DNA from: a virus
Lineage: Duplodnaviria; Caudoviricetes
Direction: 5' to 3' (one strand)
DNA: 64,000 nucleotides
IMG/VR virus record: IMGVR_UViG_3300028591_000075
Coordinates: 32,001-96,000 of that record
Positions 29,958 through 51,638 of the stretch are shown piece by piece; position 1 is the first letter of the stretch; every line of letters begins with the position of its first letter. A program made the position numbers and the translations under genes. Under the pieces are notes generated by a model. It did not search any database and was not told where the DNA came from. It saw only the letters and a program-made list of their open reading frames with translations.

Positions 29958-30000
29958 GTTATTCCTCTCGGGGTATAAACTATCTCCAAGAGGTTACATC

Positions 30001-31398: not shown

Positions 31399-34300
31399 TT
31401 AGACATCGACATCATTCTTTTGGACAACCGCTTGTGGCGGGTTTTTCCAAATGACCGCAAGGTTATCCTTGCTCGTCTTGATGACCCCGTTGACAACCAT
31501 GTCCTTGGCGCGACGGGTAATCTCCTTGGTGATGTCATCCTTGATCTTCTTTTCCAGACCAGGGAGGCCACCCTTAACGGTACCCTTCGTCTGGGTCAGG
31601 TACTGCCTGATTTCCTCGCGGATATCGTTCTGCGTAGCATCGCTGAAAGTGGAACCAACCACACCGTGTACGATGGCGGCAATTTTGCCCTCGCCAAACT
31701 TGGCCACGAAGTTGTTGCCCTGAGGGTCGGTATATTCCCGCAAGAAATTACCATCAGCAGTAACGTTAGCCCATTGCTTACCGGTATCCTTACCAGCGTC
31801 ATTCTGGATAGAGCGCTGGATAATACCAATCATAACAGGAACAAGTTGCTTGGCCGCAACCATCGGGTCAACTGGAGCAGTATTGCCACGAACAACCTTG
31901 GCGATTGCCTTCTTGCTATCAGGGGCAAACTTGCCATCCGATGTAAAGACCGAGTGACCAAGTTCCTTTTCGGCCCTGTTGATGATAAGGGTCATCTGCA
32001 TGTGGGCATCCGGACTATCGACCGGGAGAGCCTTACCATTACCGATTTGCACCTGGTCAGATTCCTCACCATCGGAGCCGGTAACCATGTGAATACCCGG
32101 AATATCCGAACGTGCAATCAAGCGGATGGTGCCATCATCAATGCTGCCACCCATAGGTGTCTTACCGGCATCGATAGACACTGCACCGATGGAAGACCTC
32201 AGATACTTGCGCAATTCGGCCATATCGTAGTTTTCCATGTCATGCGCATACGTTTCCGCAAAATGAGCCTGGGCATTCGGATTAGTAGACGAATTCACAT
32301 CATCGCAGAACTGGTCGATACTTCCAGTGAAGCCGGCGTTAGACCTAAGGTCTTCCTTGACCATACGCTTCTGTGCAGTAGGCATATTAACATCGAGAGT
32401 GCTCAGCTTCTTCTGAACCGTTCCCATAATGGCATCCAGCGATTCACGGTTAGCCTGGGTAATTGCACTTACACCATGGTCACCGTCCTCCGAGCGCATT
32501 CTGCGGTTCTGTTCATTCACGGAGCCTACGCTAGGCATCTTGGGCATGCCAAGGTTCTTCTCCATCTCCTGTGCCCTACGTGCAGCAGGGCCGCGCAGCG
32601 CGGTCTTCTTCGGGTTGGCACGCTCCTTGGAGTAATCCATGATTGCATCAGGAATTGCCGAGTGAGATGTACGCATCCGGTCAAGCACGTCGTCAATCAC
32701 CTCACGCGGGTCTCCACTGGTGTTATCCAGCAGACGCATGTTGTTGACGATGAACTGTTCCGCCTTTGCGCCGAGCACGCTCTCGACATACCTCACACCC
32801 CAGCCAGCCTTCTGTTTAAGTGCTGCGACTTCGGGGCTCGGGGTATATGCATTGCCCTGCTTCTCCATTGCCGCCTTCTTTCGTTCCTCAGAATCCTCGA
32901 CCTGGTGATACTTATAGATATCGCAGATGGCATTGGCAATCTGTTCGTATGTCTTGGCCTCTTCGGCATCGACACTGGCAGCAGCCTTATAGCGTTCCCT
33001 AGGATTGGAACCGAATGCATTCACAATCCGGTCAATCATCGCATTTTTAAGGGCGCTCTTCTCGTTGACGGAACCGTCAATCTTCTCCTGCACATACTTC
33101 TTGCCAAGTTCTTCCTGCATGTACGCAACGGCATCAGGACCACCGATTTCACCCAGCGCCTTAAAGCCTTCATCACGCATTTCCTGACGTTCCTTGTCAT
33201 TCCTTGCGTTAAAGCCCAAGATCTGGGTGACTGCATCAGCCAACCTGTCATCGGCCTTTACACCACGGTCAGGATACTGCCCAGTCAAATTCTTGATGTA
33301 CTCATCAGAATCATATTGGGCACCGGCAGTAGCATCCGCATTCAAGTCCTCGGCCATGTTATGGAGATGAGCCTCATGACCGGCGTTACGTTCAGCCGGA
33401 TCCAAGGCGGCAAAGATTGTCGCCGCATGACCGGATGCAAGGTTACCAGCCAAGCTGAAGAACGTTTCAGAAATGCGTTCCATCATTTCCGGATTGTTCT
33501 TACGCATCGGGCCAAAGGTACCATTGGACAGCAACCTATCCGTCATCTGGTAACGGATGGCCTTGACAATACCATCGATAACCGCCTTGTTCTTCAGCAT
33601 CGCAGCAAGACGCTTCCCGGACAGCATACCGGCACTCTTACCGAAAGCCATCTCGGCGTAGGTCTTTCCAGCAAACGGCCCATTCACGCATGTCTCGTCG
33701 AGTGCAAGCGTTTCAAGAAGGGCACCAAAGGGCATCTTCGGGTTCGTCTGGGTCATAGAAGCAAACCTGCTAACCAGCTTGCTGTATTCGGCATCCCCTT
33801 CCGACTCGCAATCCAGAATTGCTCCGTATGCGGCAGCCGCTTCCGCATTCGGCGCGTAGCTACGGTTGATTTCGCTTTCAGCACGATGCGTCTTGTTGTA
33901 GGCAGCATGCTTTGCAGCACGAATCGTATCCAACTTACGACCGTAACCTTCAGTCGAATGCATACCGAAATCATGGTAAATGGATTCAATTTCGCGGCTA
34001 AGGTTATCGTCGTTGATAACGCTATTCATGGCCGAGTTCAATGTTTCCCTAGCAACATCCGGGTCAACATTTGCATCCGCACTAGAACGCTGCTTGGCAA
34101 CGTCACGCATAGCGGTAGGAATGTTAGACACCGGTGTCTCATGACCGGCATACGGGTTAGGAGTGGCCTGGTTCTTGGTAATGTCGCCCACGCGCAGAAT
34201 GATATGTGCGAATGCCGTACTTGCCTTCGAAATTTCGGCCAAGGTGTTATCAGGGCCAATTTCAAAGCCATCGGTAAGGAATTCGTTCAATTCATGACGC

Positions 34301-37300
34301 ATAGCTGCGGTCTCAGGCATGTAACGAGAGCAACGAGTTTTCAGGCCCGTGACAACTTCGTCAACCAGCTTTCTCCATTCATCACCGGCAGCGCTATCAA
34401 CGACAGCACCTGTCGGAGACTGCTGGAATCTCAACCGCATCTTGGAATCCATATACTTGGTAGCGATGTAATCAATCACATCGTCAGCCCACAACGTACG
34501 CACGTTCGCCTTTCCGACATTTGCCAAGTCGGCACCATTCTTCTCGGCAAATTCCTGCAAGTCCTCTCGGGCAGACTGGATATAGTCGGCACATTTCTGA
34601 ACCGCACCCTTATTCAATCCACTGTAAGCAGATTCGCCGTCAGTCAATGGCCTAATGGAACCAATGCTGCCACTGGTATTTCCGACCTTGATAGTATCGA
34701 ACCCCAGCTTGCCGGTCAATCCATCATAAGTACCGCCGTTGGATGGTGTCCAGGTTTTGAAGTTGCTCGCAACCTCTTCACCAACCCCACTCGGATTTTC
34801 ATCTGGCGCTTCCAGTTCCTGACCAGCATCATCCAGGGAAACGGTATCATTCGTATCCATATCGGACAATTTCCTGGGCGAAGTATGGAAGAAGTGAACC
34901 ACCTTGTTCTTCAGGTCTTCGAGGTTCTTTGCACCCTCGACGGCGCCAATAGCGGCAGCGGCCAATTCAGCATAAGCGGCATGTTCGCCACTATCGCCAA
35001 TGATCGAACCGCGGAATGCATCAGTCAAGGCATTGATGAGAGCGCCATTCCCGGTCAGTTGACGCAGGATAGCACGGCGCTGTTCCATCTTGGGAAGCGT
35101 CTTTTGCTTCATCAATGCGGCCATGGCCTTGTCAATAGCCTTTGTATTGACACCAGACATGAGCCATGGCTTAACACTCTCGGTAACCGGACCACGAACA
35201 ATCAGGTTGGCCAGCGCCGAGTACAGGCTTGCGTAAATCTTACCAAGTTCAGCATATTTGCCATTCGGCTGAACGATAGCCTTTTCAGCCTGCTGTTCCA
35301 AAGATGTCTTTGCCGCAGCATCTACCGGCACACGATCCAGCAACTGTGCAGCCGCGTCGGCGAGCGCAGCATTGCGTCCACGCTCTCCCACCATGGTAGA
35401 AGCATTCAAAATTGTTTCGGCAGTCTTGATAATGCCCTGCTCCGTTTCACGCTGGGCAGCAATCGCCCCATTCGTATCACGGAAACGTCCAATGGGTTCG
35501 GCATTTCCAGCAGAATTAAAGGATACCGAGATTCGGTTACCTTCATCATACTTACCGCCGGAATACATGCCTATCACATCAAGACCATGATACCCATATC
35601 CGGTAGCAATACTGTTGGCCGCACCACACAGGTCTTGCAGGAACGCCCTAAATGCAACCAAGGTATCATGTTCATCATTGTCATAAGCAGCCGAAATCTC
35701 AGCTGGAATGTTCTTACTGTTGAGCGTAGTGAACAAGTCGGTCGCGAATTCCTTACCATAGCTCTGCACGAGTTTCCTGGTATTGTCAGCTTCTTCGGCA
35801 CTGGATGTAGCATCCAGGTGATTAGCAGACATGACAGCCGCATATTCCTTGGCTCGTTCTGCAACCATTTGTAGCAATTCTTCACTAGAAGCGTCGGACA
35901 CCATGGCAGGAATACTACCATACACATCCCTGAATGCGAACCTGACCGGAGCACCAAGGTTCTGCACCACATTGCCAATATACTGGTTCAAGTCAGCATC
36001 GTATGCCTCAATGTTGGCGATGATTGAATAGGCATGCAGGGTCTTTTCATCAAACGAGCGAACCGCATCGGCATTGCTGAATTTCTGTCCCGCCTTAGTC
36101 GGGGGAAGCGTTGCAGCCAATTCCTGCTTGCTAAGTTCAGGAACCTCGAATGTATCGCGACCACTCAGGTCAACCGCCGGATTACGGTCATTCAATGACG
36201 ATATGGCACCGGAGGCGATGTCCTCACCCTCAGCAACCCTGGCGGAATGCAATTCCTGGTCCTCATCATTCATGTATTCCATCTTATTATCGACCATACG
36301 AGTATATGGAACGATACCTTTCCAGATGGTATAGGTCGTGAACGATTCGCTACTGTCATAGAACGGGAACAGAACCGGCATAGTGTAATTGTCGGCACCT
36401 TCCACATCGCCATGATTGAGCTTTACGACAGCATCACCCATCTTGATATCGAGTTCCCCATTCGTCTTGTTATCCGACAAGACCTGGTACTTGCCAGGAT
36501 AACGCTTAACAGCCCTAAGCACTCGGCTAGTAATCTCGCCACGTTCGACACTGGTCTTACGAAGCAAGATTTCATCACCGGTACCGGCAACACCAGGATA
36601 CTCCGACTTGCCATCCTGGAATACCTGGCTCAGGATATTGTTCGATACCTCATCGCCAGCCTCAGCACGAAGCGCGGCGACACCCTGGTCATGAACCTGA
36701 ACAGCGGCGCGTACATCACGGGACAAGCTGGCGATCTTGGCATTGATTTCATCGCGCATGTATTCGGTATAATCCGAGTCTTCTTCATCCTCAGCCTTCG
36801 GGCGAAGGGACACGCCGAATAGCTTAGCCATTTTCTCGTAACCGCGCACAATGTCATTGATGTCGTTCAAACGGACACCACCACGCTTCTTCATGAAACG
36901 GGCGCAATCCTTTGCGAACAATGGCTTCAAGTATTGCGGCGCCACCGGTGCGCCACTGAGGTCCAAGCTCGGATTGGCGATATTCAAGGCAAGGTACTCG
37001 CTCCTACCTTCGCCGGTCTGATATTCAGTTTCATCGGGAAGACCTTCACCCTCAATCCAGTCCTGAACATATCCAGCCGTATCAGGTACGCTCTTCGAAT
37101 GGTCAGGCGGCTTGGGGCTAGGGTTGGACGACCAGTACCAGTCGGCATAGTCGGAAGCAGCATCCTTGGCTTCGAGACTATGTTCAAGAATACCACTACC
37201 ATAGGTTTCGGACATGCGGCATGCGATATATGCATAAATTTCAGCATCGCTGATGGTGCTATGGTCCGATTCATTCGGCTGATTGCCCTTGTTGTAGCTA

Positions 37301-38007
37301 AACCCAACAGCCTTCGGCTGGAGATAGCGCTCAACCGGATTTCCATCCTTGTCGGTTTCGACAGCGGACAACGGCTTGCTAGAGGTCAATTCACTGACAT
37401 ACTGTTGACGGTATGTATTCATCATGTTGCCGAAGTCATCCAACAGCGGCATCGAATTGCGCTTGCTTTCGATATGCGACACCAGGTCGTAAAGGTAGGC
37501 GCCAAACTTGGAACCAAGTGTCTTCAAGCGTTCCGGGTTGTTCAGTATGCCAATCACGGTCTTACGAGCTTCCCTGGTCGTATTGTAGTTATAGTCACTC
37601 AACTTCTGGGAGGATACTGCCTGCTGCCTACGCAGAGCAGGATCGCCCTTACGCCCAAACGGAACGATACGGCGAGAAGCCGGGTCATAGCGGAACCCCG
37701 CGTCCGACTCGATATCCTTGACATTCGGATTGCGATAGGACCTGGCAATGTCACCGGTCACTGCTTCGGCGATGAGGTCGAAGTATTCCGGGTCATCGTT
37801 CCGGTGGAACGCTGCATAAATGACGGAGGCCAGGCTCGGTGGAAACCTCAATGTGTCATCTTTAGTATTGACGCGATATACAGGAGAATCATCGGTTGAC
37901 TTGGTAAACACCAGGGCCAACTTGTGCATGGCATATAACGCATTCCTGATTCCGTCGATATCCTGCTGCGGGGCATTGATCGCTTCGAGTATTGGACGAT
38001 TGTTCAT
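31399..38007 (-). CDS. Giant Ala-rich helical late protein (about 2200 aa), probable virion-internal/ejected protein
   Basis: Long ORF; probable start MNNRPILEA at 38007, downstream of TATAAACT 38042-38049; no enzyme motif recognised. Confidence 0.8.
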   Translation of the reverse strand: MNNRPILEAINAPQQDIDGIRNALYAMHKLALVFTKSTDDSPVYRVNTKDDTLRFPPSLASVIYAAFHRNDDPEYFDLIAEAVTGDIARSYRNPNVKDIESDAGFRYDPASRRIVPFGRKGDPALRRQQAVSSQKLSDYNYNTTREARKTVIGILNNPERLKTLGSKFGAYLYDLVSHIESKRNSMPLLDDFGNMMNTYRQQYVSELTSSKPLSAVETDKDGNPVERYLQPKAVGFSYNKGNQPNESDHSTISDAEIYAYIACRMSETYGSGILEHSLEAKDAASDYADWYWSSNPSPKPPDHSKSVPDTAGYVQDWIEGEGLPDETEYQTGEGRSEYLALNIANPSLDLSGAPVAPQYLKPLFAKDCARFMKKRGGVRLNDINDIVRGYEKMAKLFGVSLRPKAEDEEDSDYTEYMRDEINAKIASLSRDVRAAVQVHDQGVAALRAEAGDEVSNNILSQVFQDGKSEYPGVAGTGDEILLRKTSVERGEITSRVLRAVKRYPGKYQVLSDNKTNGELDIKMGDAVVKLNHGDVEGADNYTMPVLFPFYDSSESFTTYTIWKGIVPYTRMVDNKMEYMNDEDQELHSARVAEGEDIASGAISSLNDRNPAVDLSGRDTFEVPELSKQELAATLPPTKAGQKFSNADAVRSFDEKTLHAYSIIANIEAYDADLNQYIGNVVQNLGAPVRFAFRDVYGSIPAMVSDASSEELLQMVAERAKEYAAVMSANHLDATSSAEEADNTRKLVQSYGKEFATDLFTTLNSKNIPAEISAAYDNDEHDTLVAFRAFLQDLCGAANSIATGYGYHGLDVIGMYSGGKYDEGNRISVSFNSAGNAEPIGRFRDTNGAIAAQRETEQGIIKTAETILNASTMVGERGRNAALADAAAQLLDRVPVDAAAKTSLEQQAEKAIVQPNGKYAELGKIYASLYSALANLIVRGPVTESVKPWLMSGVNTKAIDKAMAALMKQKTLPKMEQRRAILRQLTGNGALINALTDAFRGSIIGDSGEHAAYAELAAAAIGAVEGAKNLEDLKNKVVHFFHTSPRKLSDMDTNDTVSLDDAGQELEAPDENPSGVGEEVASNFKTWTPSNGGTYDGLTGKLGFDTIKVGNTSGSIGSIRPLTDGESAYSGLNKGAVQKCADYIQSAREDLQEFAEKNGADLANVGKANVRTLWADDVIDYIATKYMDSKMRLRFQQSPTGAVVDSAAGDEWRKLVDEVVTGLKTRCSRYMPETAAMRHELNEFLTDGFEIGPDNTLAEISKASTAFAHIILRVGDITKNQATPNPYAGHETPVSNIPTAMRDVAKQRSSADANVDPDVARETLNSAMNSVINDDNLSREIESIYHDFGMHSTEGYGRKLDTIRAAKHAAYNKTHRAESEINRSYAPNAEAAAAYGAILDCESEGDAEYSKLVSRFASMTQTNPKMPFGALLETLALDETCVNGPFAGKTYAEMAFGKSAGMLSGKRLAAMLKNKAVIDGIVKAIRYQMTDRLLSNGTFGPMRKNNPEMMERISETFFSLAGNLASGHAATIFAALDPAERNAGHEAHLHNMAEDLNADATAGAQYDSDEYIKNLTGQYPDRGVKADDRLADAVTQILGFNARNDKERQEMRDEGFKALGEIGGPDAVAYMQEELGKKYVQEKIDGSVNEKSALKNAMIDRIVNAFGSNPRERYKAAASVDAEEAKTYEQIANAICDIYKYHQVEDSEERKKAAMEKQGNAYTPSPEVAALKQKAGWGVRYVESVLGAKAEQFIVNNMRLLDNTSGDPREVIDDVLDRMRTSHSAIPDAIMDYSKERANPKKTALRGPAARRAQEMEKNLGMPKMPSVGSVNEQNRRMRSEDGDHGVSAITQANRESLDAIMGTVQKKLSTLDVNMPTAQKRMVKEDLRSNAGFTGSIDQFCDDVNSSTNPNAQAHFAETYAHDMENYDMAELRKYLRSSIGAVSIDAGKTPMGGSIDDGTIRLIARSDIPGIHMVTGSDGEESDQVQIGNGKALPVDSPDAHMQMTLIINRAEKELGHSVFTSDGKFAPDSKKAIAKVVRGNTAPVDPMVAAKQLVPVMIGIIQRSIQNDAGKDTGKQWANVTADGNFLREYTDPQGNNFVAKFGEGKIAAIVHGVVGSTFSDATQNDIREEIRQYLTQTKGTVKGGLPGLEKKIKDDITKEITRRAKDMVVNGVIKTSKDNLAVIWKNPPQAVVQKNDVDV

Positions 38008-38041
38008 CGAGATAACCTTGTGAAACTTGTTATTTGCAGGT

Positions 38042-38110
38042 AGTTTATAGAAATGTCGAAAAAACAATCCGCCCATATATCAAATTTATGGGTGCAATGC
38101 CCTATAAACT
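38042..38110. promoter_or_regulatory. Back-to-back TATAAACT promoters for divergent large genes
   Basis: AGTTTATA at 38042-38049 and TATAAACT at 38103-38110. Confidence 0.75.
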
Positions 38111-47129: not shown

Positions 47130-48686
47130 TCACGAAACCGCGTTAGCGTATTCGTCGGCTATCCTGCGGTCGGCCTCATCACCCCATCCGCAATAGTACC
47201 CGACCTCGTAGAACGATGCCATCTCGGCATCGACCATGGCGTCATCGGGTTCAAGTATCGCCCTCTCCTCGACTGTCGTAGTCGGGATGCCGAACCGGTC
47301 GAGTTCCCGGTCAAGGATGGCCTTGGCGGCATCGCCGAACTCGCGGGGAACGATGACCTCGTCATGCACAGTGCAGTAAGGGCACCCTATCTCGGCCTTG
47401 ATTGCCGGGATGACCACGTCGAACACGAAGGAACTCTCCATCCTCTGCATCTCGTATGCGAGTGCGCGGTAGTTCGACACCTTCATGCTGTCGATGAGGA
47501 TGAGCAGTTTCGGCCAATGTTCCTCCCACACCCTGCGACATGCATGCCAAGCCGGGTCGCACCCGTCATCGAGCCGGACACCGGCGAACAGCGTGGCCAG
47601 GAAGGCCTTCTTCGCCCTCTCGCGATCAACCACCTCATCCAGGTCAAAATCCTGTGACATCTCGGAAGCGAAGAACTCGTAAAGTTCGCGCCGTTCCAGC
47701 TTCCCGCGAAAATCGGCAAACTCCCGGTTCAACTGTTCCCGGCCAATCCAGTCCGGTGCGCCGGGATCCATCACGATGAACGATTCCCCGTTGCGCCCGA
47801 GCATGGCCTTGTCGCCACGGAGGCACGCGCCGATGATGTAGCACAGGAACGCGCCCTGGCTGCTCTTGATGTCAACCTCGGCAACCGGTCCGCCGTCACA
47901 TGTCAGGGCGCCCTCCCTGACCTCGCGCTTTACCTGGGTAATGTTGGTGTGTACGCGCCCGTAGTCGTCGCGCACGACATACAGAGAAGTGTCACTCTCC
48001 TCCGCATCGTTGAACCGGTCAACCTTCCTCAACTCACGGTCCAACTTGCGCCCCTCAATCCCGGCAGTCACCAGGGCGCGACGGGCCTTGGCCCGGTCGA
48101 TGTGGAAGTGTTTCAGGTTCTCGTGCGCATCGCGGACAACCGGGTCCATGAGCTGGATGCGCTTGCGGTCCTCGGCACATTTCTGCAGCCTTTTCAGGAG
48201 AATTTTCGACCGTAGTTTCACGGCCATCATGCGTCCCGCGTGGAAGTCGCCCTTGCCATAGAGGTGCGCGACATCCCTCGCGTAGCAGTATTCCTTCAAC
48301 ATCCACCCGTAGCCCTCGCCGAACCACACGGCCTTGCTCATGCCGGGTGTGCTCCCGGTAGCCTTGCAGTAGGAGGAACCGCGCATGAGGACACCCCAGT
48401 TCTTCAAGTTCTCGAACACCTCGATGTACTTGTGGCCCATCGCGGTATCCATGATTTTCGAGTAGAGGCGACAGAACCATTCGCGGCACTTCGGGGGCTT
48501 CCTGGTGGCCAGGTACTCCCTGCGGTAGGACTCGACGAGCCCCTTCGTTACCCAGTGGATGATTAGCCAGTAGTAGTCGTGGTCCCTCTCGGGGACATTG
48601 TGCTCTTTCAGCAGTGCGCGAATGGGTTTCCTGAACTTGTCCAGGACCCGTATCTCGTATTCAAACTTTGTCCGCGTTTCCGGCAT
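47130..48686 (-). CDS. Stand-alone PolA/T7-RNAP-superfamily nucleotidyltransferase (palm/fingers only, no exonuclease domains)
   Basis: DDYGRVHTNITQ, motif A EVDIKSSQ, motif B RERAKKAFLATLFA, LAYEMQRMES, motif C TVHDEVIV. Confidence 0.75.
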   Translation of the reverse strand: MPETRTKFEYEIRVLDKFRKPIRALLKEHNVPERDHDYYWLIIHWVTKGLVESYRREYLATRKPPKCREWFCRLYSKIMDTAMGHKYIEVFENLKNWGVLMRGSSYCKATGSTPGMSKAVWFGEGYGWMLKEYCYARDVAHLYGKGDFHAGRMMAVKLRSKILLKRLQKCAEDRKRIQLMDPVVRDAHENLKHFHIDRAKARRALVTAGIEGRKLDRELRKVDRFNDAEESDTSLYVVRDDYGRVHTNITQVKREVREGALTCDGGPVAEVDIKSSQGAFLCYIIGACLRGDKAMLGRNGESFIVMDPGAPDWIGREQLNREFADFRGKLERRELYEFFASEMSQDFDLDEVVDRERAKKAFLATLFAGVRLDDGCDPAWHACRRVWEEHWPKLLILIDSMKVSNYRALAYEMQRMESSFVFDVVIPAIKAEIGCPYCTVHDEVIVPREFGDAAKAILDRELDRFGIPTTTVEERAILEPDDAMVDAEMASFYEVGYYCGWGDEADRRIADEYANAVS

Positions 48687-48707
48687 GGCACCACAACTGA
48701 ACAGGAA

Positions 48708-48799
48708 GTGCCCCTGTGCCTCCCTCTTTTAATTTCGCTGGACGGGAGACAGCAGGGGCACCAAAATGAAAAACTCATCTTTCGGACGGGTCCAGCGAA
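48708..48799 (-). promoter_or_regulatory. Predicted H-type RNA pseudoknot in the leader of the PolA-like gene
   Basis: 48790-48799 pairs with 48734-48743 (10 bp, perfect); 48744-48761 pairs with 48708-48724 (17 bp, one G-U, one bulge); the stems are interleaved. Confidence 0.7.
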
Positions 48800-48960
48800 G
48801 ACCGTTCCATTGCCCGCAGCTTATACATCGGCATAGAAAAACTATCCCAACTACGGTTTCAACGGCAAAAAGTTACGAAACGCTTGCAACTTCAGCAAGG
48901 GGTCAGGCCCTGTACATATGTAAAAAATTGTTTAAGTTTACATAATACTGGAGGCACAGC

Positions 48961-49214
48961 GACTCCCGGAGGGAGGGTTTTCTGTGGCTGCCGCCAAGGC
49001 TACTCCCCTTCCATAAAGATGTTTACGAAACAGCAGGGTGGCCAATATGGCCCAAAATGGGCAATTCGGGGAAGGCCGGAAGGGCCATCACGCCACCGGG
49101 CGTGTAAACTTTTCTAAACTGCTTGTACAGAGGTACCTGGACTCCCGAGGGGAGGGGAGGGGTTGAGTTTCGCCTGCGTCAAAGCAACCTACACATCCAT
49201 AAAGATGTTTACGA
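48961..49214. repeat. Two degenerate direct-repeat units: CTCCC-NNN-GGGAG mini-hairpin plus identical 19-bp box TCCATAAAGATGTTTACGA
   Basis: Boxes at 49010-49028 and 49196-49214; hairpins at 48963-48975 and 49142-49154. Confidence 0.9.
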
Positions 49215-49242
49215 TTTTAGGATGGGAAAATAGGCCCCGTTG

Positions 49243-49271
49243 TTGACATTGTCTCCCGAATTTGCTACATT
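49243..49271 (+). promoter_or_regulatory. Sigma70-type promoter TTGACA-17-(TGn)TACATT
   Basis: Exact spacing, extended -10. Confidence 0.8.
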
Positions 49272-49277
49272 TTGGGC

Positions 49278-49745
49278 ATGAGCGAAGGAAATATCAGCAT
49301 AAGCGCACCCGAGAAGAAGTTCCGGGTGGGTATATTCTCGCCTACCGAGTGGCATGCCGGCATGACGAAGCCGTCCATGGTTATCGAGCTGTACCCGGTG
49401 TTCCATAGGTCATCGGTGACTTTCGTCCCGACAGTCGTCGGCGAGGAGCCTGACGTTATGGACGGATGGGAATCCGGGTACATCGCCGGCAAGGTGGTTG
49501 CCGCGGTCAAGGCCGAACTCGAAGCCGAAGGCGAACTGTCGAACGAAGCGCGTATTCACGACAAGACCTGGATCCTGTCGGCATCCGAAGGCTATGTGCG
49601 TCCCGGGGCTGACTACCGTGTACTCGTATGGTTCGTATCCGAAAGGCCGGGCGAGATTTCCGCCCTGTGGGTAGCATCCGCCGACTCGGTAAAACGTGAA
49701 ACCGCTGCGGTCGATGAACCGAAGGGGCACAGGTACAAGGTATAG
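49278..49745 (+). CDS. Hypothetical protein
   Basis: ATG 49278 lies 6 nt after the TTGACA-17-TACATT promoter. Confidence 0.75.
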   Translation: MSEGNISISAPEKKFRVGIFSPTEWHAGMTKPSMVIELYPVFHRSSVTFVPTVVGEEPDVMDGWESGYIAGKVVAAVKAELEAEGELSNEARIHDKTWILSASEGYVRPGADYRVLVWFVSERPGEISALWVASADSVKRETAAVDEPKGHRYKV

Positions 49746-49748
49746 CCG

Positions 49749-51638
49749 ATGGCTGAATCCGAAAAGAAATATGAATTTGTTGTCGAGTTCTCGGTGGGCG
49801 ATTCGTCGCACACCGCCGTTCGCGCATATCCGGTAAACCCGAATTCCAACGCGAAGAAGCTCGTCCACATGTTCATGCAGTCCGCCTTTACCTACTACAA
49901 CAAGGCGAAGAAGTATTCCTGGGAAGCGAAGCATCACATCCGCGGGTTCGACTGCAACGAGTATTTTTACGACAAGAATAAGGGGTGGATTCCGACGGGC
50001 ATGATCCCGAGGGCGCGTGACTACCTGAAAATGCAGTATGGCGACAGGGTGGCCATCACGATTTCTAAGGAAATCCGCAACATGTTCTCCCCGCCTTTCG
50101 GGCAGATTACGCGAGAAGACATCGAGGAGTTTACCAAGACACTCAATATCCACGACCGGGAAACCGGGAAGCCGCTGATCCCGTTCGAGCATCAGTACCG
50201 TCTGGTCGAGATTGCGCTCAACAGGCGCCGTGGCCTCCTGTTTGCATGTACCTCCGCCGGCAAGTCGGTGTCGATGATGATAATCGCCCGCTACCTGATG
50301 GAGAAGGAACACAAGAAGATCCTCATCATTGTGCCGAGCAAGGGCCTGGTCGAACAGCTTTACGACAACTTCTACACCGACTACGGGTGGGACGATGCGC
50401 GTGAATACTGTACCCTGCTGCATGGCGAGTCCTCTGACAAGATTTCCAAGAAGAAACTGGAAGAGTTGCAGAAGAAGTCAATCGGTGAAGAGAAGCTGTT
50501 GAAGCAGATTACCATCTCCACCTGGCAGACGCTCCAGCACAAGCACCCCGGTTTCTTCAAGGTGTTCGATGCCGTCCTGGTGGACGAGGCGCACGGCATG
50601 CGCGGTGTCGTCCTGCGCAGCATCCTCGAACAGTGTACCAACGCAAACAATTTCAAGGTCGGTGTCTCCGGCACGCTTCCCCTTGTCAAGCCCACCAAGG
50701 AGAACCGTGGACAGCACGGCGAAATCGGTATCAGCCTGGCACCCAGGGACGTTACCGACAGTGCCGAGTTCATCGACGCATGCAATATCGAATCGCAGCT
50801 CGGTCCGATTTATGACGTTGTACACCTTCGCGACCTTATCGCGAACGGTACGTTGACCCCGGTGCAGATGCACATGATTTACATCCCGTATCCCTACAAT
50901 ACGCGCTACGGCATATGTTATGCCAAGTACCAGATGGAACGGGCGATCGTCCTCGGGAACAGTTCCCGCAAGGACGTGATTTCCATGCTTATCGACGCCG
51001 GTCACCTTGGCACCGACCAGAATTCGGTCATTCTCTATGACGGCATCGAGCGTCTGCACGACCTGCATGATTTCTTGCAGGGGAAATATCCGCAGTACAC
51101 CTACCACATCATCGAGGGTGAAGTCAGCGCGTCCGAGCGCGAATCTATCCGAAAGCTGCTGGAAGGCAGTACCGGTAATATCCTCATCGCCACTTACGGT
51201 TGCATGAAGCAGGGCGTGAACATCAAGCAGCTCAACAACCTGGTCCTTGCCGAGCCGGCCAAGTCCATGTACAAGGTGATGCAGTCCATCGGGCGCGTGG
51301 TGCGAAAGCACCCGAACAAGCAGGTCGCCAACGTGTACGACCTCGTGGATGACGCAAATTGCTGGAAGCGTAAGCTGGACGGGACATCGGAGCAGATGTT
51401 CAACTACATGATGATACACGCCCGTTACCGCATGACGTACTATGATGCGGAGAACATCCCCATCGAGGAGCAGCACATGGACGGCATATACGAGGCGCAG
51501 CTTACCCCCGATGACATCAAGAAGCACCGCAAGGAAGCTGCCGACCGTGCCGCCGAGCGACTGCAAAAGCAGAAGCAGAAGAATGGTGGACAGATAGAGA
51601 TGGATTTGCCATACAAGAAGAAATTCTCGCTGATTTAG
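49749..51638 (+). CDS. uvsW: SF2 helicase UvsW-like
   Basis: CTSAGKS, VLVDEAH, SGT, GVNIK, QSIGR, VYDLVDD. Confidence 0.93.
   Translation: MAESEKKYEFVVEFSVGDSSHTAVRAYPVNPNSNAKKLVHMFMQSAFTYYNKAKKYSWEAKHHIRGFDCNEYFYDKNKGWIPTGMIPRARDYLKMQYGDRVAITISKEIRNMFSPPFGQITREDIEEFTKTLNIHDRETGKPLIPFEHQYRLVEIALNRRRGLLFACTSAGKSVSMMIIARYLMEKEHKKILIIVPSKGLVEQLYDNFYTDYGWDDAREYCTLLHGESSDKISKKKLEELQKKSIGEEKLLKQITISTWQTLQHKHPGFFKVFDAVLVDEAHGMRGVVLRSILEQCTNANNFKVGVSGTLPLVKPTKENRGQHGEIGISLAPRDVTDSAEFIDACNIESQLGPIYDVVHLRDLIANGTLTPVQMHMIYIPYPYNTRYGICYAKYQMERAIVLGNSSRKDVISMLIDAGHLGTDQNSVILYDGIERLHDLHDFLQGKYPQYTYHIIEGEVSASERESIRKLLEGSTGNILIATYGCMKQGVNIKQLNNLVLAEPAKSMYKVMQSIGRVVRKHPNKQVANVYDLVDDANCWKRKLDGTSEQMFNYMMIHARYRMTYYDAENIPIEEQHMDGIYEAQLTPDDIKKHRKEAADRAAERLQKQKQKNGGQIEMDLPYKKKFSLI

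Follow-up and report, generated by a model that had tools for sequence, protein, structure and literature searches.

Two identical 19-bp sequences lie between a polymerase-like gene and a helicase operon in the genome of a phage, and the locus raises the question of whether a protein reads them and whether synthesis starts there. The stretch of DNA analyzed here (the window, 64,000 nucleotides) comprises bases 32,001-96,000 of a 253,312-bp virus record (IMGVR_UViG_3300028591_000075; CheckV completeness 67%). Both 19-mers, which we call boxes, and two small hairpins are located inside a 590-bp intergenic gap (48687-49277) between diverging genes: a leftward gene for a protein of 518 amino acids (aa) on the left side and, on the right side, a rightward operon consisting of a 155-aa gene followed by the helicase gene. 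The original prediction, made from the letters of the sequence, had described two hairpin-box units at this place and proposed them as recognition or initiation sites of the neighboring PolA/RNA polymerase (RNAP)-like protein. The two hairpins and the two 19-mers are indeed present in the sequence at the coordinates predicted for them, with the boxes 186 bp apart. Here, we found that the 19-mers make up the conserved core of a cis-element that has been duplicated and is unique in the genome. Together with a leftward polymerase gene and a rightward UvsW-like helicase operon, one or two rightward boxes form a three-part module in huge T4-like phages. The features needed for the argument are the following:

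49010-49028, plus strand: box 1, TCCATAAAGATGTTTACGA, read from the sequence, invariant across relatives
49196-49214, plus strand: box 2, TCCATAAAGATGTTTACGA, read from the sequence, invariant across relatives
47130-48686, minus strand: 518-aa protein with a winged-helix-like N-terminal domain (~13-160) and a minimal core (~175-480) of the family-A polymerase/single-subunit RNA polymerase (ssRNAP) type
49749-51638, plus strand: UvsW-like SF2 helicase (T4 UvsW 2oca_A, E 4.2e-42; ResIII/DEAD/Helicase_C; phrog_16)

When up to three mismatches (<=3) were allowed, the 19-mer was found at 2 sites only in the entire 253,312-bp record. The two units are homologous over ~135 nt, and the gapped local score of this alignment was 74, compared with 23.8 ± 4.4 (maximum 40) for 300 shuffles. 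Because of this homology, the pairing of hairpin and box reflects one tandem duplication and not two independent coincidences. A DNA search with the intergenic region gave no match among 50,697 phage records. An exact 18-mer match was found inside a gene of an unrelated 45-kb phage, which we judged to be a chance match. Relatives of the locus were found by scanning with the flanking proteins, and their sequence identities are as follows:

L009: polymerase 97%, helicase 99%
L007: polymerase 79%, helicase 91%
L008: polymerase 71%, helicase 69%
L152: polymerase 65% (residues 175-480)
L005: polymerase 59%
L006: polymerase 41%, helicase 50%

In all ten units of the window, L009, L007, L008 and L152, the sequence CC(A/G)TAAAGATGTTTACGA is unchanged (18 nt invariant), whereas the flanks diverge.

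A profile of the 518-aa family yielded 35 loci on phage contigs of up to 422 kb. Relative to the polymerase gene, the boxes are upstream and on the opposite strand; there are two of them at 15 of these loci and one at 10, and L042 carries a variant pair. Box-type sites accompany the polymerase gene in ~25 loci, down to 33% protein identity. Where the polymerases are 33-41% identical, the copies of the box in one genome agree fully over 17-25 nt, those of different lineages vary, but a common plan can be recognized: CC (or AC), 6-7 A/T-rich bases and ATGTT(T). The paired boxes read:

L006/L019: AAGTCCTATAGATATGTTTAACG, two copies, 96 nt apart
L020: GTACTATAAATATGTTTCA, two copies
L023: ACCAAATATATGTTTCATGTTTTAT, two copies
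L025: CACCATGTTTATGTTTCGA, two copies
L030: GACCATGTTAATGTTTCGA, two copies

In L028 and L031 the two copies differ from each other, and the differences are confined to the A/T-rich part. Ten more distant loci carry a single invariant box, TAACACTATATGTTCTCA, between the polymerase and helicase genes. For three genomes, the boxes were counted over the whole sequence:

G001: 422,150 bp, complete, one box
G002: 419,423 bp, complete, one box
G005: 355 kb, 93% complete, two boxes

We considered a phased box-to-box spacing (186, 174, 164 and 173 nt) and rejected it, since it is broken by L006 (96 nt), L020 (99 nt), L152 (~320 nt) and L022 (820 nt).

The polymerase-like gene and the helicase gene are divergent neighbors at 29 of the 35 loci. 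When the scan was started from the helicase, the subfamily of at least 43% identity nearly always adjoined the polymerase gene, whereas ordinary UvsW loci (<=30% identity) had neither polymerase gene nor box. Two arrangements separate the partners. L008 has an insertion of two genes that separates box 2 from the helicase operon and leaves the boxes next to the polymerase gene. In one genome, in which the two genes are located 20 kb apart, the box-like sequence AACATATATATGG is found next to the polymerase gene and no box is present at the helicase operon. These comparisons (the polymerase core, the ~25 loci and the cases of insertion and separation) argue on sequence grounds for the original proposal that the boxes are tied to the neighboring PolA/RNAP-like gene. 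In the literature we found no description of such a polymerase/box/helicase module.

The 518-aa protein gave no match in Pfam, PHROG or NCBIfam. A library of 1.8 billion proteins contains 956 relatives, and relatives in BFVD are labeled 'putative DNA polymerase I'. When the phage records were searched in protein mode with the polymerase, only four uncultured huge-phage records were retrieved (23-25% identity). The conserved motifs are DxYGR(V/I)HT, (V)DIKSSQ, RxxAKK...LF and CTVHD(S/E), and R244, D272, Q277, R355, K359 and D442 are invariant. The set of catalytic residues expected of a family-A/ssRNAP core is complete. For the AF2 model (pLDDT 88), the VIA Z values over residues ~175-480 were 13.8 for Aquifex Pol1, 13.7 for Klenow, 13.1 for yeast mitochondrial RNAP, 11.1 for T7 RNAP and 8.8 for N4 RNAPII. 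Overall, family-A DNA polymerases scored 13.5-13.8, which is near equal to the mitochondrial and T7 RNAPs (13.1, 11.1), and the N4 mini-virion RNAP (mini-vRNAP) scored 7.2. The top Foldseek match was apPOL (E 5.7e-5), and the profile search had its best PDB match in N4 RNAPII, at motifs B and C (E 0.018). In the domain search no nuclease or exonuclease domain was found, and the fold matches cover residues 175-480 only. The N-terminal domain, modeled alone (pLDDT 91), matched mostly winged-helix DNA-binding domains (Fur, ORC/Cdc6, TFIIE, MarR, LexA, Pi initiator; Z 4.6-6.2). At the position of Klenow E710, the steric gate, the family carries the invariant Q277, and at that of F762 it carries L363 (both assigned by sequence alignment only). 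Leu at the F762 position matches the M/L of ssRNAP motif B in the HMMER alignment to N4 RNAPII. Since Q277 and Leu at these two positions resemble ssRNAPs and not CCPol, the characterized primase discussed below, the product of the polymerase may be RNA rather than DNA.

The genome encodes a replication gene set of the T4 type (family-B polymerase [PolB], primase, gp32-like single-strand binding protein, DnaB-like helicase, UvsX-like recombinase), and an exonuclease, an SbcC-like protein and the baseplate protein gp25 are encoded as well. The module is located at the main divergent strand switch. In G001 the box is found at 207,644, which is 3.4 kb from the global minimum of the cumulative GC skew (211,043), and the skew falls before this point and rises after it. 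In the genome studied here, a negative skew slope flattens to ~zero at 80 kb, close to the boxes at 81.0 kb. In G001 and G002 the single box sits at 49% of the genome length, which is mid-genome and not the injected end. The skew position is consistent with an origin without proving one, since skew follows the direction of transcription too.

Taken together, these data suggest that the boxes are the recognition and initiation sites of the polymerase at a replication origin, and we give this interpretation a probability of about one half. A dedicated recognition and initiation site is indicated by a sequence that is unique per genome, has a promoter-like layout, occurs in identical copies retuned in each lineage and is welded to the polymerase and helicase genes. 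An origin would be the most economical form of such a site. The low copy number also points to a dedicated site, since a general promoter class would recur, as is the case for the A/T-rich 8-mer most over-represented in the genome studied here (TATAAACT, 39 copies), which is probably a T4-like late promoter. A genome-wide promoter class was rejected, because box and hairpin are confined to this locus. According to the proposed mechanism, the N-terminal domain of the polymerase would dock on the box, in which CC is followed by 6-7 easily melted A/T-rich bases and the invariant ATGTT, and there the enzyme would begin a primer or transcript de novo. The PolB replisome of the phage would extend this product, so that the site would serve as origin of bidirectional replication, and the UvsW-type helicase would act on the same intermediate, as T4 UvsW removes origin R-loops. 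Binding, de novo initiation, an RNA or DNA product and origin function are all inferred from sequence and model comparisons. Going further, it is conceivable, although we hold this more tentatively, that the module is a self-contained origin-firing device, in which a winged-helix-fused minimal family-A polymerase recognizes a genome-unique box and starts synthesis de novo, making one origin independent of the host RNAP, with the UvsW-type helicase as partner or off-switch.

Several observations weigh against an initiation site of the polymerase. No clear box was found at three loci (L026, L027 and L048), and in L022 and L029 the two boxes are 820 nt apart with an endonuclease V gene on the opposite strand between them. 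The DNA downstream of the boxes is G+C-rich in the window and has no obvious unwinding element; in the single-box group it is A/T-rich. Conventional promoters flank the boxes, so that a regulatory role is equally natural, and the linkage across relatives is partly plain synteny. In the genome studied here the global skew minimum is found at 105.9 kb, which is 25 kb from the boxes, and both GC skew and strand switch are confounded with the direction of transcription. Finally, the Z values behind the winged-helix assignment of the N-terminal domain (4.6-6.2) are below the caution line of the tool.

The second element of the original prediction, the hairpins, behaved differently from the boxes. 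The following structures are concerned:

48963-48975, plus strand: hairpin 1, CTCCC-GGA-GGGAG, followed by GGTTTT, read from the sequence
49142-49154, plus strand: hairpin 2, CTCCC-GAG-GGGAG, overlapping the G-tract GAGGGGAGGGGAGGGG (49147-49162)
48985-48996, plus strand: mini-hairpin TGGC-TGCC-GCCA; the (A)AAG-YWAC motif of unit 1 follows it immediately

CTCCC-N3-GGGAG occurs at 2 sites only in the 253,312-bp record, both in this gap. Perfect hairpins with a 5-bp stem and a 3-nt loop are found 336 times genome-wide (~247 expected). When the hairpin regions were folded as DNA, their stability equaled that of shuffles (z -1.3 to +0.9). Loop 1 (GGA) fits the pattern G-N-A closed by C:G, whereas loop 2 (GAG) does not. 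Among the relatives, the hairpin is kept only in unit 1 of L009; in unit 2 of L009 it is altered to CTCCCGAGGGAGG, in which the 3-nt loop is gone, and in L007, L008 and L152 it is absent. The original prediction had regarded both elements as preserved by selection, because the DNA between them has diverged, and had made its case dependent on their persistence in relatives that carry the gene. This holds for the box, which is unique in the genome and invariant in ten units with varying flanks. It does not hold for the hairpin, which is likewise unique but was lost or altered in the relatives. We read the 5-bp/3-nt-loop hairpins as by-products of the G-rich tract that are outside the conserved signal.

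On the strand of the boxes, this G-tract follows box 1 at a distance of ~120 nt, and tracts of the GGGAGGG type recur in L005, L006 and L152. Such tracts favor R-loops or quadruplexes. As for the mini-hairpin, its stem varies in sequence between units but retains its pairing (TGGC/GCCA, GCGG/CCGC, TTTCGC/GCGAAA, TTCCGC/GCGGAA, CCAC/GTGG). In the ten units of this lineage (window, L009, L007, L008 and L152), a stem of at least 3 bp is present in nine and one of at least 4 bp in five, ending in one 6-nt window, and shuffles gave 0.20 (>=3 bp) and 0.056 (>=4 bp) per unit. In several units the minus strand of the mini-hairpin reads C(GAA)G or C(GCA)G. A fixed-position hairpin in other lineages was rejected: stems of at least 4 bp within 52 nt were present in 12 of 20 units vs 36% of shuffles, and their positions were scattered. 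Since there is no positional equivalent in other lineages, we take the mini-hairpin as a lead only.

The boxes are enclosed by two promoter-like elements, and the first gene of the rightward operon begins close to one of them:

48870-48898, minus strand: putative sigma-70/sigma-A-like promoter, reading leftward into the polymerase gene (TTGCTG, 17 nt, TAACTT)
49243-49271, plus strand: rightward sigma-70-like promoter (TTGACA, 17 nt, TACATT, TG extension; 10/12 matches in the promoter scan)
49278-49745, plus strand: 155-aa protein, first gene of the rightward operon, positional analogue of small pre-helicase genes in relatives

We infer that the leftward element is the promoter of the polymerase gene; its TTGCyn-17-TAAyTT arrangement is shared by L005, L007 and L008. 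On the right side, the ATG at 49278 begins 6 nt past the -10 hexamer, and a Shine-Dalgarno sequence is lacking, a layout that is common to L007, L009 and L006. Because of this short distance without a Shine-Dalgarno sequence, the mRNA of the 155-aa gene is probably leaderless. A fixed-phase activator site was also considered: the spacing from box 2 to the -35 element measures 18, 27 or 28 nt in four close relatives and 37 nt in L006, which suggested helical phasing. The idea was dropped, since 13 lineages give 16-42 nt with scattered phase.

Among the alternatives, the boxes might be operators for another sequence-specific regulator of phage or host, which controls both diverging promoters, with the polymerase as a mere neighbor. 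They do sit between two conserved sigma-70-like promoters, and there are operator-like elements nearby (the 27-bp palindromes of L152, AATTTG-N5-CAAATT in L022-L031, the recurring AGTTTACATAA). However, the spacing of box 2 and the -35 hexamer (16-42 nt across lineages) shows no helical phasing, the box is asymmetric and always has one orientation, and some genomes have one box, whereas others have two that are up to 820 nt apart. Moreover, no candidate regulator gene co-varies with the box, whereas the polymerase gene does. We consider operators unlikely. Somewhat poorer still are the prospects of the boxes as unusual promoters of the host RNAP that work with a phage factor, as a variant of the middle promoters at T4 oriF/oriG or of late promoters. 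They would then give rise to an origin transcript or regulatory transcript, and the polymerase would be occupied elsewhere, for example in repair or in extending primers. A likeness to the late motif is seen in the A/T-rich part of the boxes of L020 (TATAAATA) and L019 (TATAGATA). W-W-W-ATGTTT is loosely similar to the consensus of the T4 MotA box. T4 origins are promoters of this kind (PMC3016281). On the other hand, the window box matches the late promoter TATAAACT at 5/8 positions only, while 39 canonical copies exist. By eye, no -10 element was seen past the boxes where the spacing of T4 middle promoters would place one, the invariant part runs on for 10 nt past any late or middle element known, and one or two copies per genome are atypical for a promoter class.

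A different kind of signal would be present if ATGTTT encoded the Met-Phe start of leader peptides or leaderless mini-mRNAs, so that the box would act at the level of translation or RNA. Each box ATG opens a short open reading frame (ORF; 32 and 13 codons), and the adjacent operon appears leaderless. However, the peptides share only Met-Phe, and their lengths are as expected by chance. The conservation is at the nucleotide level and also covers CC and the upstream YWAC motif. Furthermore, the Rfam scan of the region gave chance-level matches only, and the consensus fold between the boxes (-1.85 kcal/mol) was without real covariation (single-sequence z -1.7). This makes an RNA-level signal very improbable. 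At the bottom of the scale we place the N4 interpretation, in which extruded 5-bp/3-nt-loop hairpins act as promoters of the N4 virion RNAP type and the box is accessory. The original prediction had leaned on this precedent, and for the hairpins it named, the comparison largely refutes it: they are absent in L007, L008 and L152, altered in unit 2 of L009 and no stabler than shuffles, and one of the two loops is GAG. In addition, other lineages lack a fixed-position hairpin, the site is mid-genome in complete relatives, and the enzyme is closer to PolA (the N4 mini-vRNAP match, Z 7.2, ranks below PolA enzymes). What speaks for hairpin promoters is the G-N-A loop of hairpin 1 closed by C:G, the membership of the neighboring enzyme in the superfamily of N4 RNAPs, and the mini-hairpin before (A)AAG, which is kept with changed stems and has C(GAA)G or C(GCA)G as a frequent minus-strand sequence.

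Additional features were noted in and around the gap. Unit 1 and unit 2 each have a head region:

48913-48948, plus strand: A/T-rich head of unit 1, with a degenerate box-like copy and the motif AAGTTTACATAAT
49103-49111, plus strand: TGTAAACTT, head of unit 2, which repeats AAGTTTACA (48934-48942) exactly in inverted orientation and is also conserved in L009 and L005

The degenerate third copy was detected by repeat search at 48913-48939 and shows a 70% match to box 2 plus flanks. AGTTTACA/TTACATAA recurs in L016, L025, L028 and L031. A second motif, (T)AGTTTACATAA, is found beside or between the boxes in either orientation (window 48934-48946 and 49103-49111; also in L025, L028 and L031). 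The ATG within each box opens an ORF that starts with Met-Phe-Thr (49019-49117 and 49205-49246). In L152, the ~320 nt between the boxes contain three tandem 27-bp palindromes, TTGTCAAA-N11-TTTGACAA (L152:1990-2180, reverse strand), which look like an operator or iteron array. The endonuclease V (nfi-like) insert mentioned above (L022:1898-2581, L029:1902-2588) has its own terminator hairpin. Directly upstream of the helicase operon of L022-L031, a palindrome AATTTG-N3-5-CAAATT overlaps the rightward promoter at its -35 hexamer and spacer, and TTTGAAAATCAA-like sequences precede each box in L025, L028 and L030.

The leader of the polymerase gene (~175 nt; 48687-48869, minus strand) contains two perfect inverted repeats, GTGCCCCTG/CAGGGGCAC at 48708-48761 and TTCGCTGGAC/GTCCAGCGAA at 48734-48799, and L007 retains both with sequence changes. 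The 155-aa protein gave no match in Pfam, PHROG, NCBIfam or PDB, and homology to its positional counterparts was rejected as not significant (E 0.1-0.2). No tRNAs were found. Eleven copies of TATAAACT are present in the window, mostly directly upstream of genes (e.g., at 29974, 38103 and 41011), and this placement fits a T4-like late promoter. A 2225-aa ORF (31399-38076, minus strand) had no Pfam match.

If the boxes are initiation sites of the polymerase, this enzyme would give the PolA/ssRNAP superfamily its first member that is sequence-specific and dedicated to an origin, and it would stand, as a living intermediate, between the TV-Pol primase-polymerases and the promoter-specific RNAPs of the T7 type. 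We know of no account of how replication starts in huge phages, and in T4 the origins, which rely on transcription by the host, are understood only in part. Initiation by a small dedicated polymerase at a DNA site of its own, unique in the genome, would be a new strategy, and such a polymerase and its site would form a compact pair orthogonal to the host. The lineage-specific boxes parallel T7, T3 and SP6, each of which has its own promoters, and the module would bear on the origin of promoter-specific ssRNAPs from family-A polymerases. With a protein of 518 aa and a site of 19 bp it is directly testable.

How does this module compare with known systems? N4 shares the superfamily of the enzyme (the best PDB profile match is N4 RNAPII) and the small number of sites per genome. 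The hairpins of N4 vRNAP promoters have a 5-7-bp stem and a 3-nt loop, and these promoters cluster where the genome enters the cell first. N4 RNAPII promoters are short and A/T-rich, and the hairpin loop of vRNAP promoters has a 5' G and a 3' A and is closed by G:C (PMC4496689). In contrast to vRNAP sites, the hairpin here is unconserved and the site is not at the genome end, and we identified no gp50-like giant virion polymerase. At T4 oriF/oriG, a promoter is combined with an unwinding element, R-loops formed there are removed by UvsW, and transcript-primed initiation is the accepted T4 model (PMC3016281). The T4-like replication gene set and a candidate initiation site beside a UvsW-type helicase gene are similar here. 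However, T4 uses the host RNAP at MotA-dependent middle promoters, has several origins and lacks a dedicated polymerase, and we saw by eye no MotA-box/-10 arrangement at the boxes.

The primary origin of T7 consists of two tandem phage-RNAP promoters, phi1.1A and phi1.1B, and is primed by T7 RNAP (PMC8373140). Here, too, two tandem identical ~20-bp sites are found next to a phage-encoded enzyme of the PolA/ssRNAP superfamily. In the box, much as in T7-group promoters, an A/T-rich stretch separates fixed bases from a fixed start region, and the single-box form ACACTATATGTTC resembles the SP6 core, ACACTATA. Unlike the boxes (1-2 per genome), T7 promoters recur genome-wide and drive expression; the enzyme here has 518 aa vs 883 and is without the T7 N-terminal domain, and no A/T-rich tract follows the boxes in the window. 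Iteron-type origins, in which a neighboring winged-helix initiator binds several direct repeats of ~20 bp, may be compared as well: there are two direct box copies here and one in many relatives, and the N-terminal domain matches the winged-helix domains of the Pi initiator and ORC/Cdc6 at weak Z values of 4.6-5.4.

By its described features, the 518-aa polymerase is closest to TV-Pol/CCPol. The TV-Pol family comprises predicted primase-polymerases of viruses and Bacteroidota (Iyer et al., 2008, PMC2579912). Its sole characterized member, CCPol, which occurs with the Cch2 helicase of SCCmec, is with its partner MP a family-A primase. It retains the E710 and F762 equivalents, and its preferred start maps to a repeat-bearing origin beside the helicase operon (Bebel et al., 2020, PMC7581432). 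Our module differs in that the helicase is SF2 UvsW-like and not D5/MCM-like, the polymerase carries an N-terminal winged-helix-like domain and has Q277 and Leu at the E710/F762 positions, and the genes reside in T4-like phages of 250-420 kb that encode a PolB, a primase and DnaB themselves. Both systems have in common a minimal family-A core of 400-600 aa without nuclease domains, the Arg hairpin, two Asp and RxxxK (here R244, D272, D442 and R355xxxK359). They also share the linkage to a helicase gene and a repeat-bearing non-coding region beside the genes, which for CCPol is the proposed origin with the preferred priming site.

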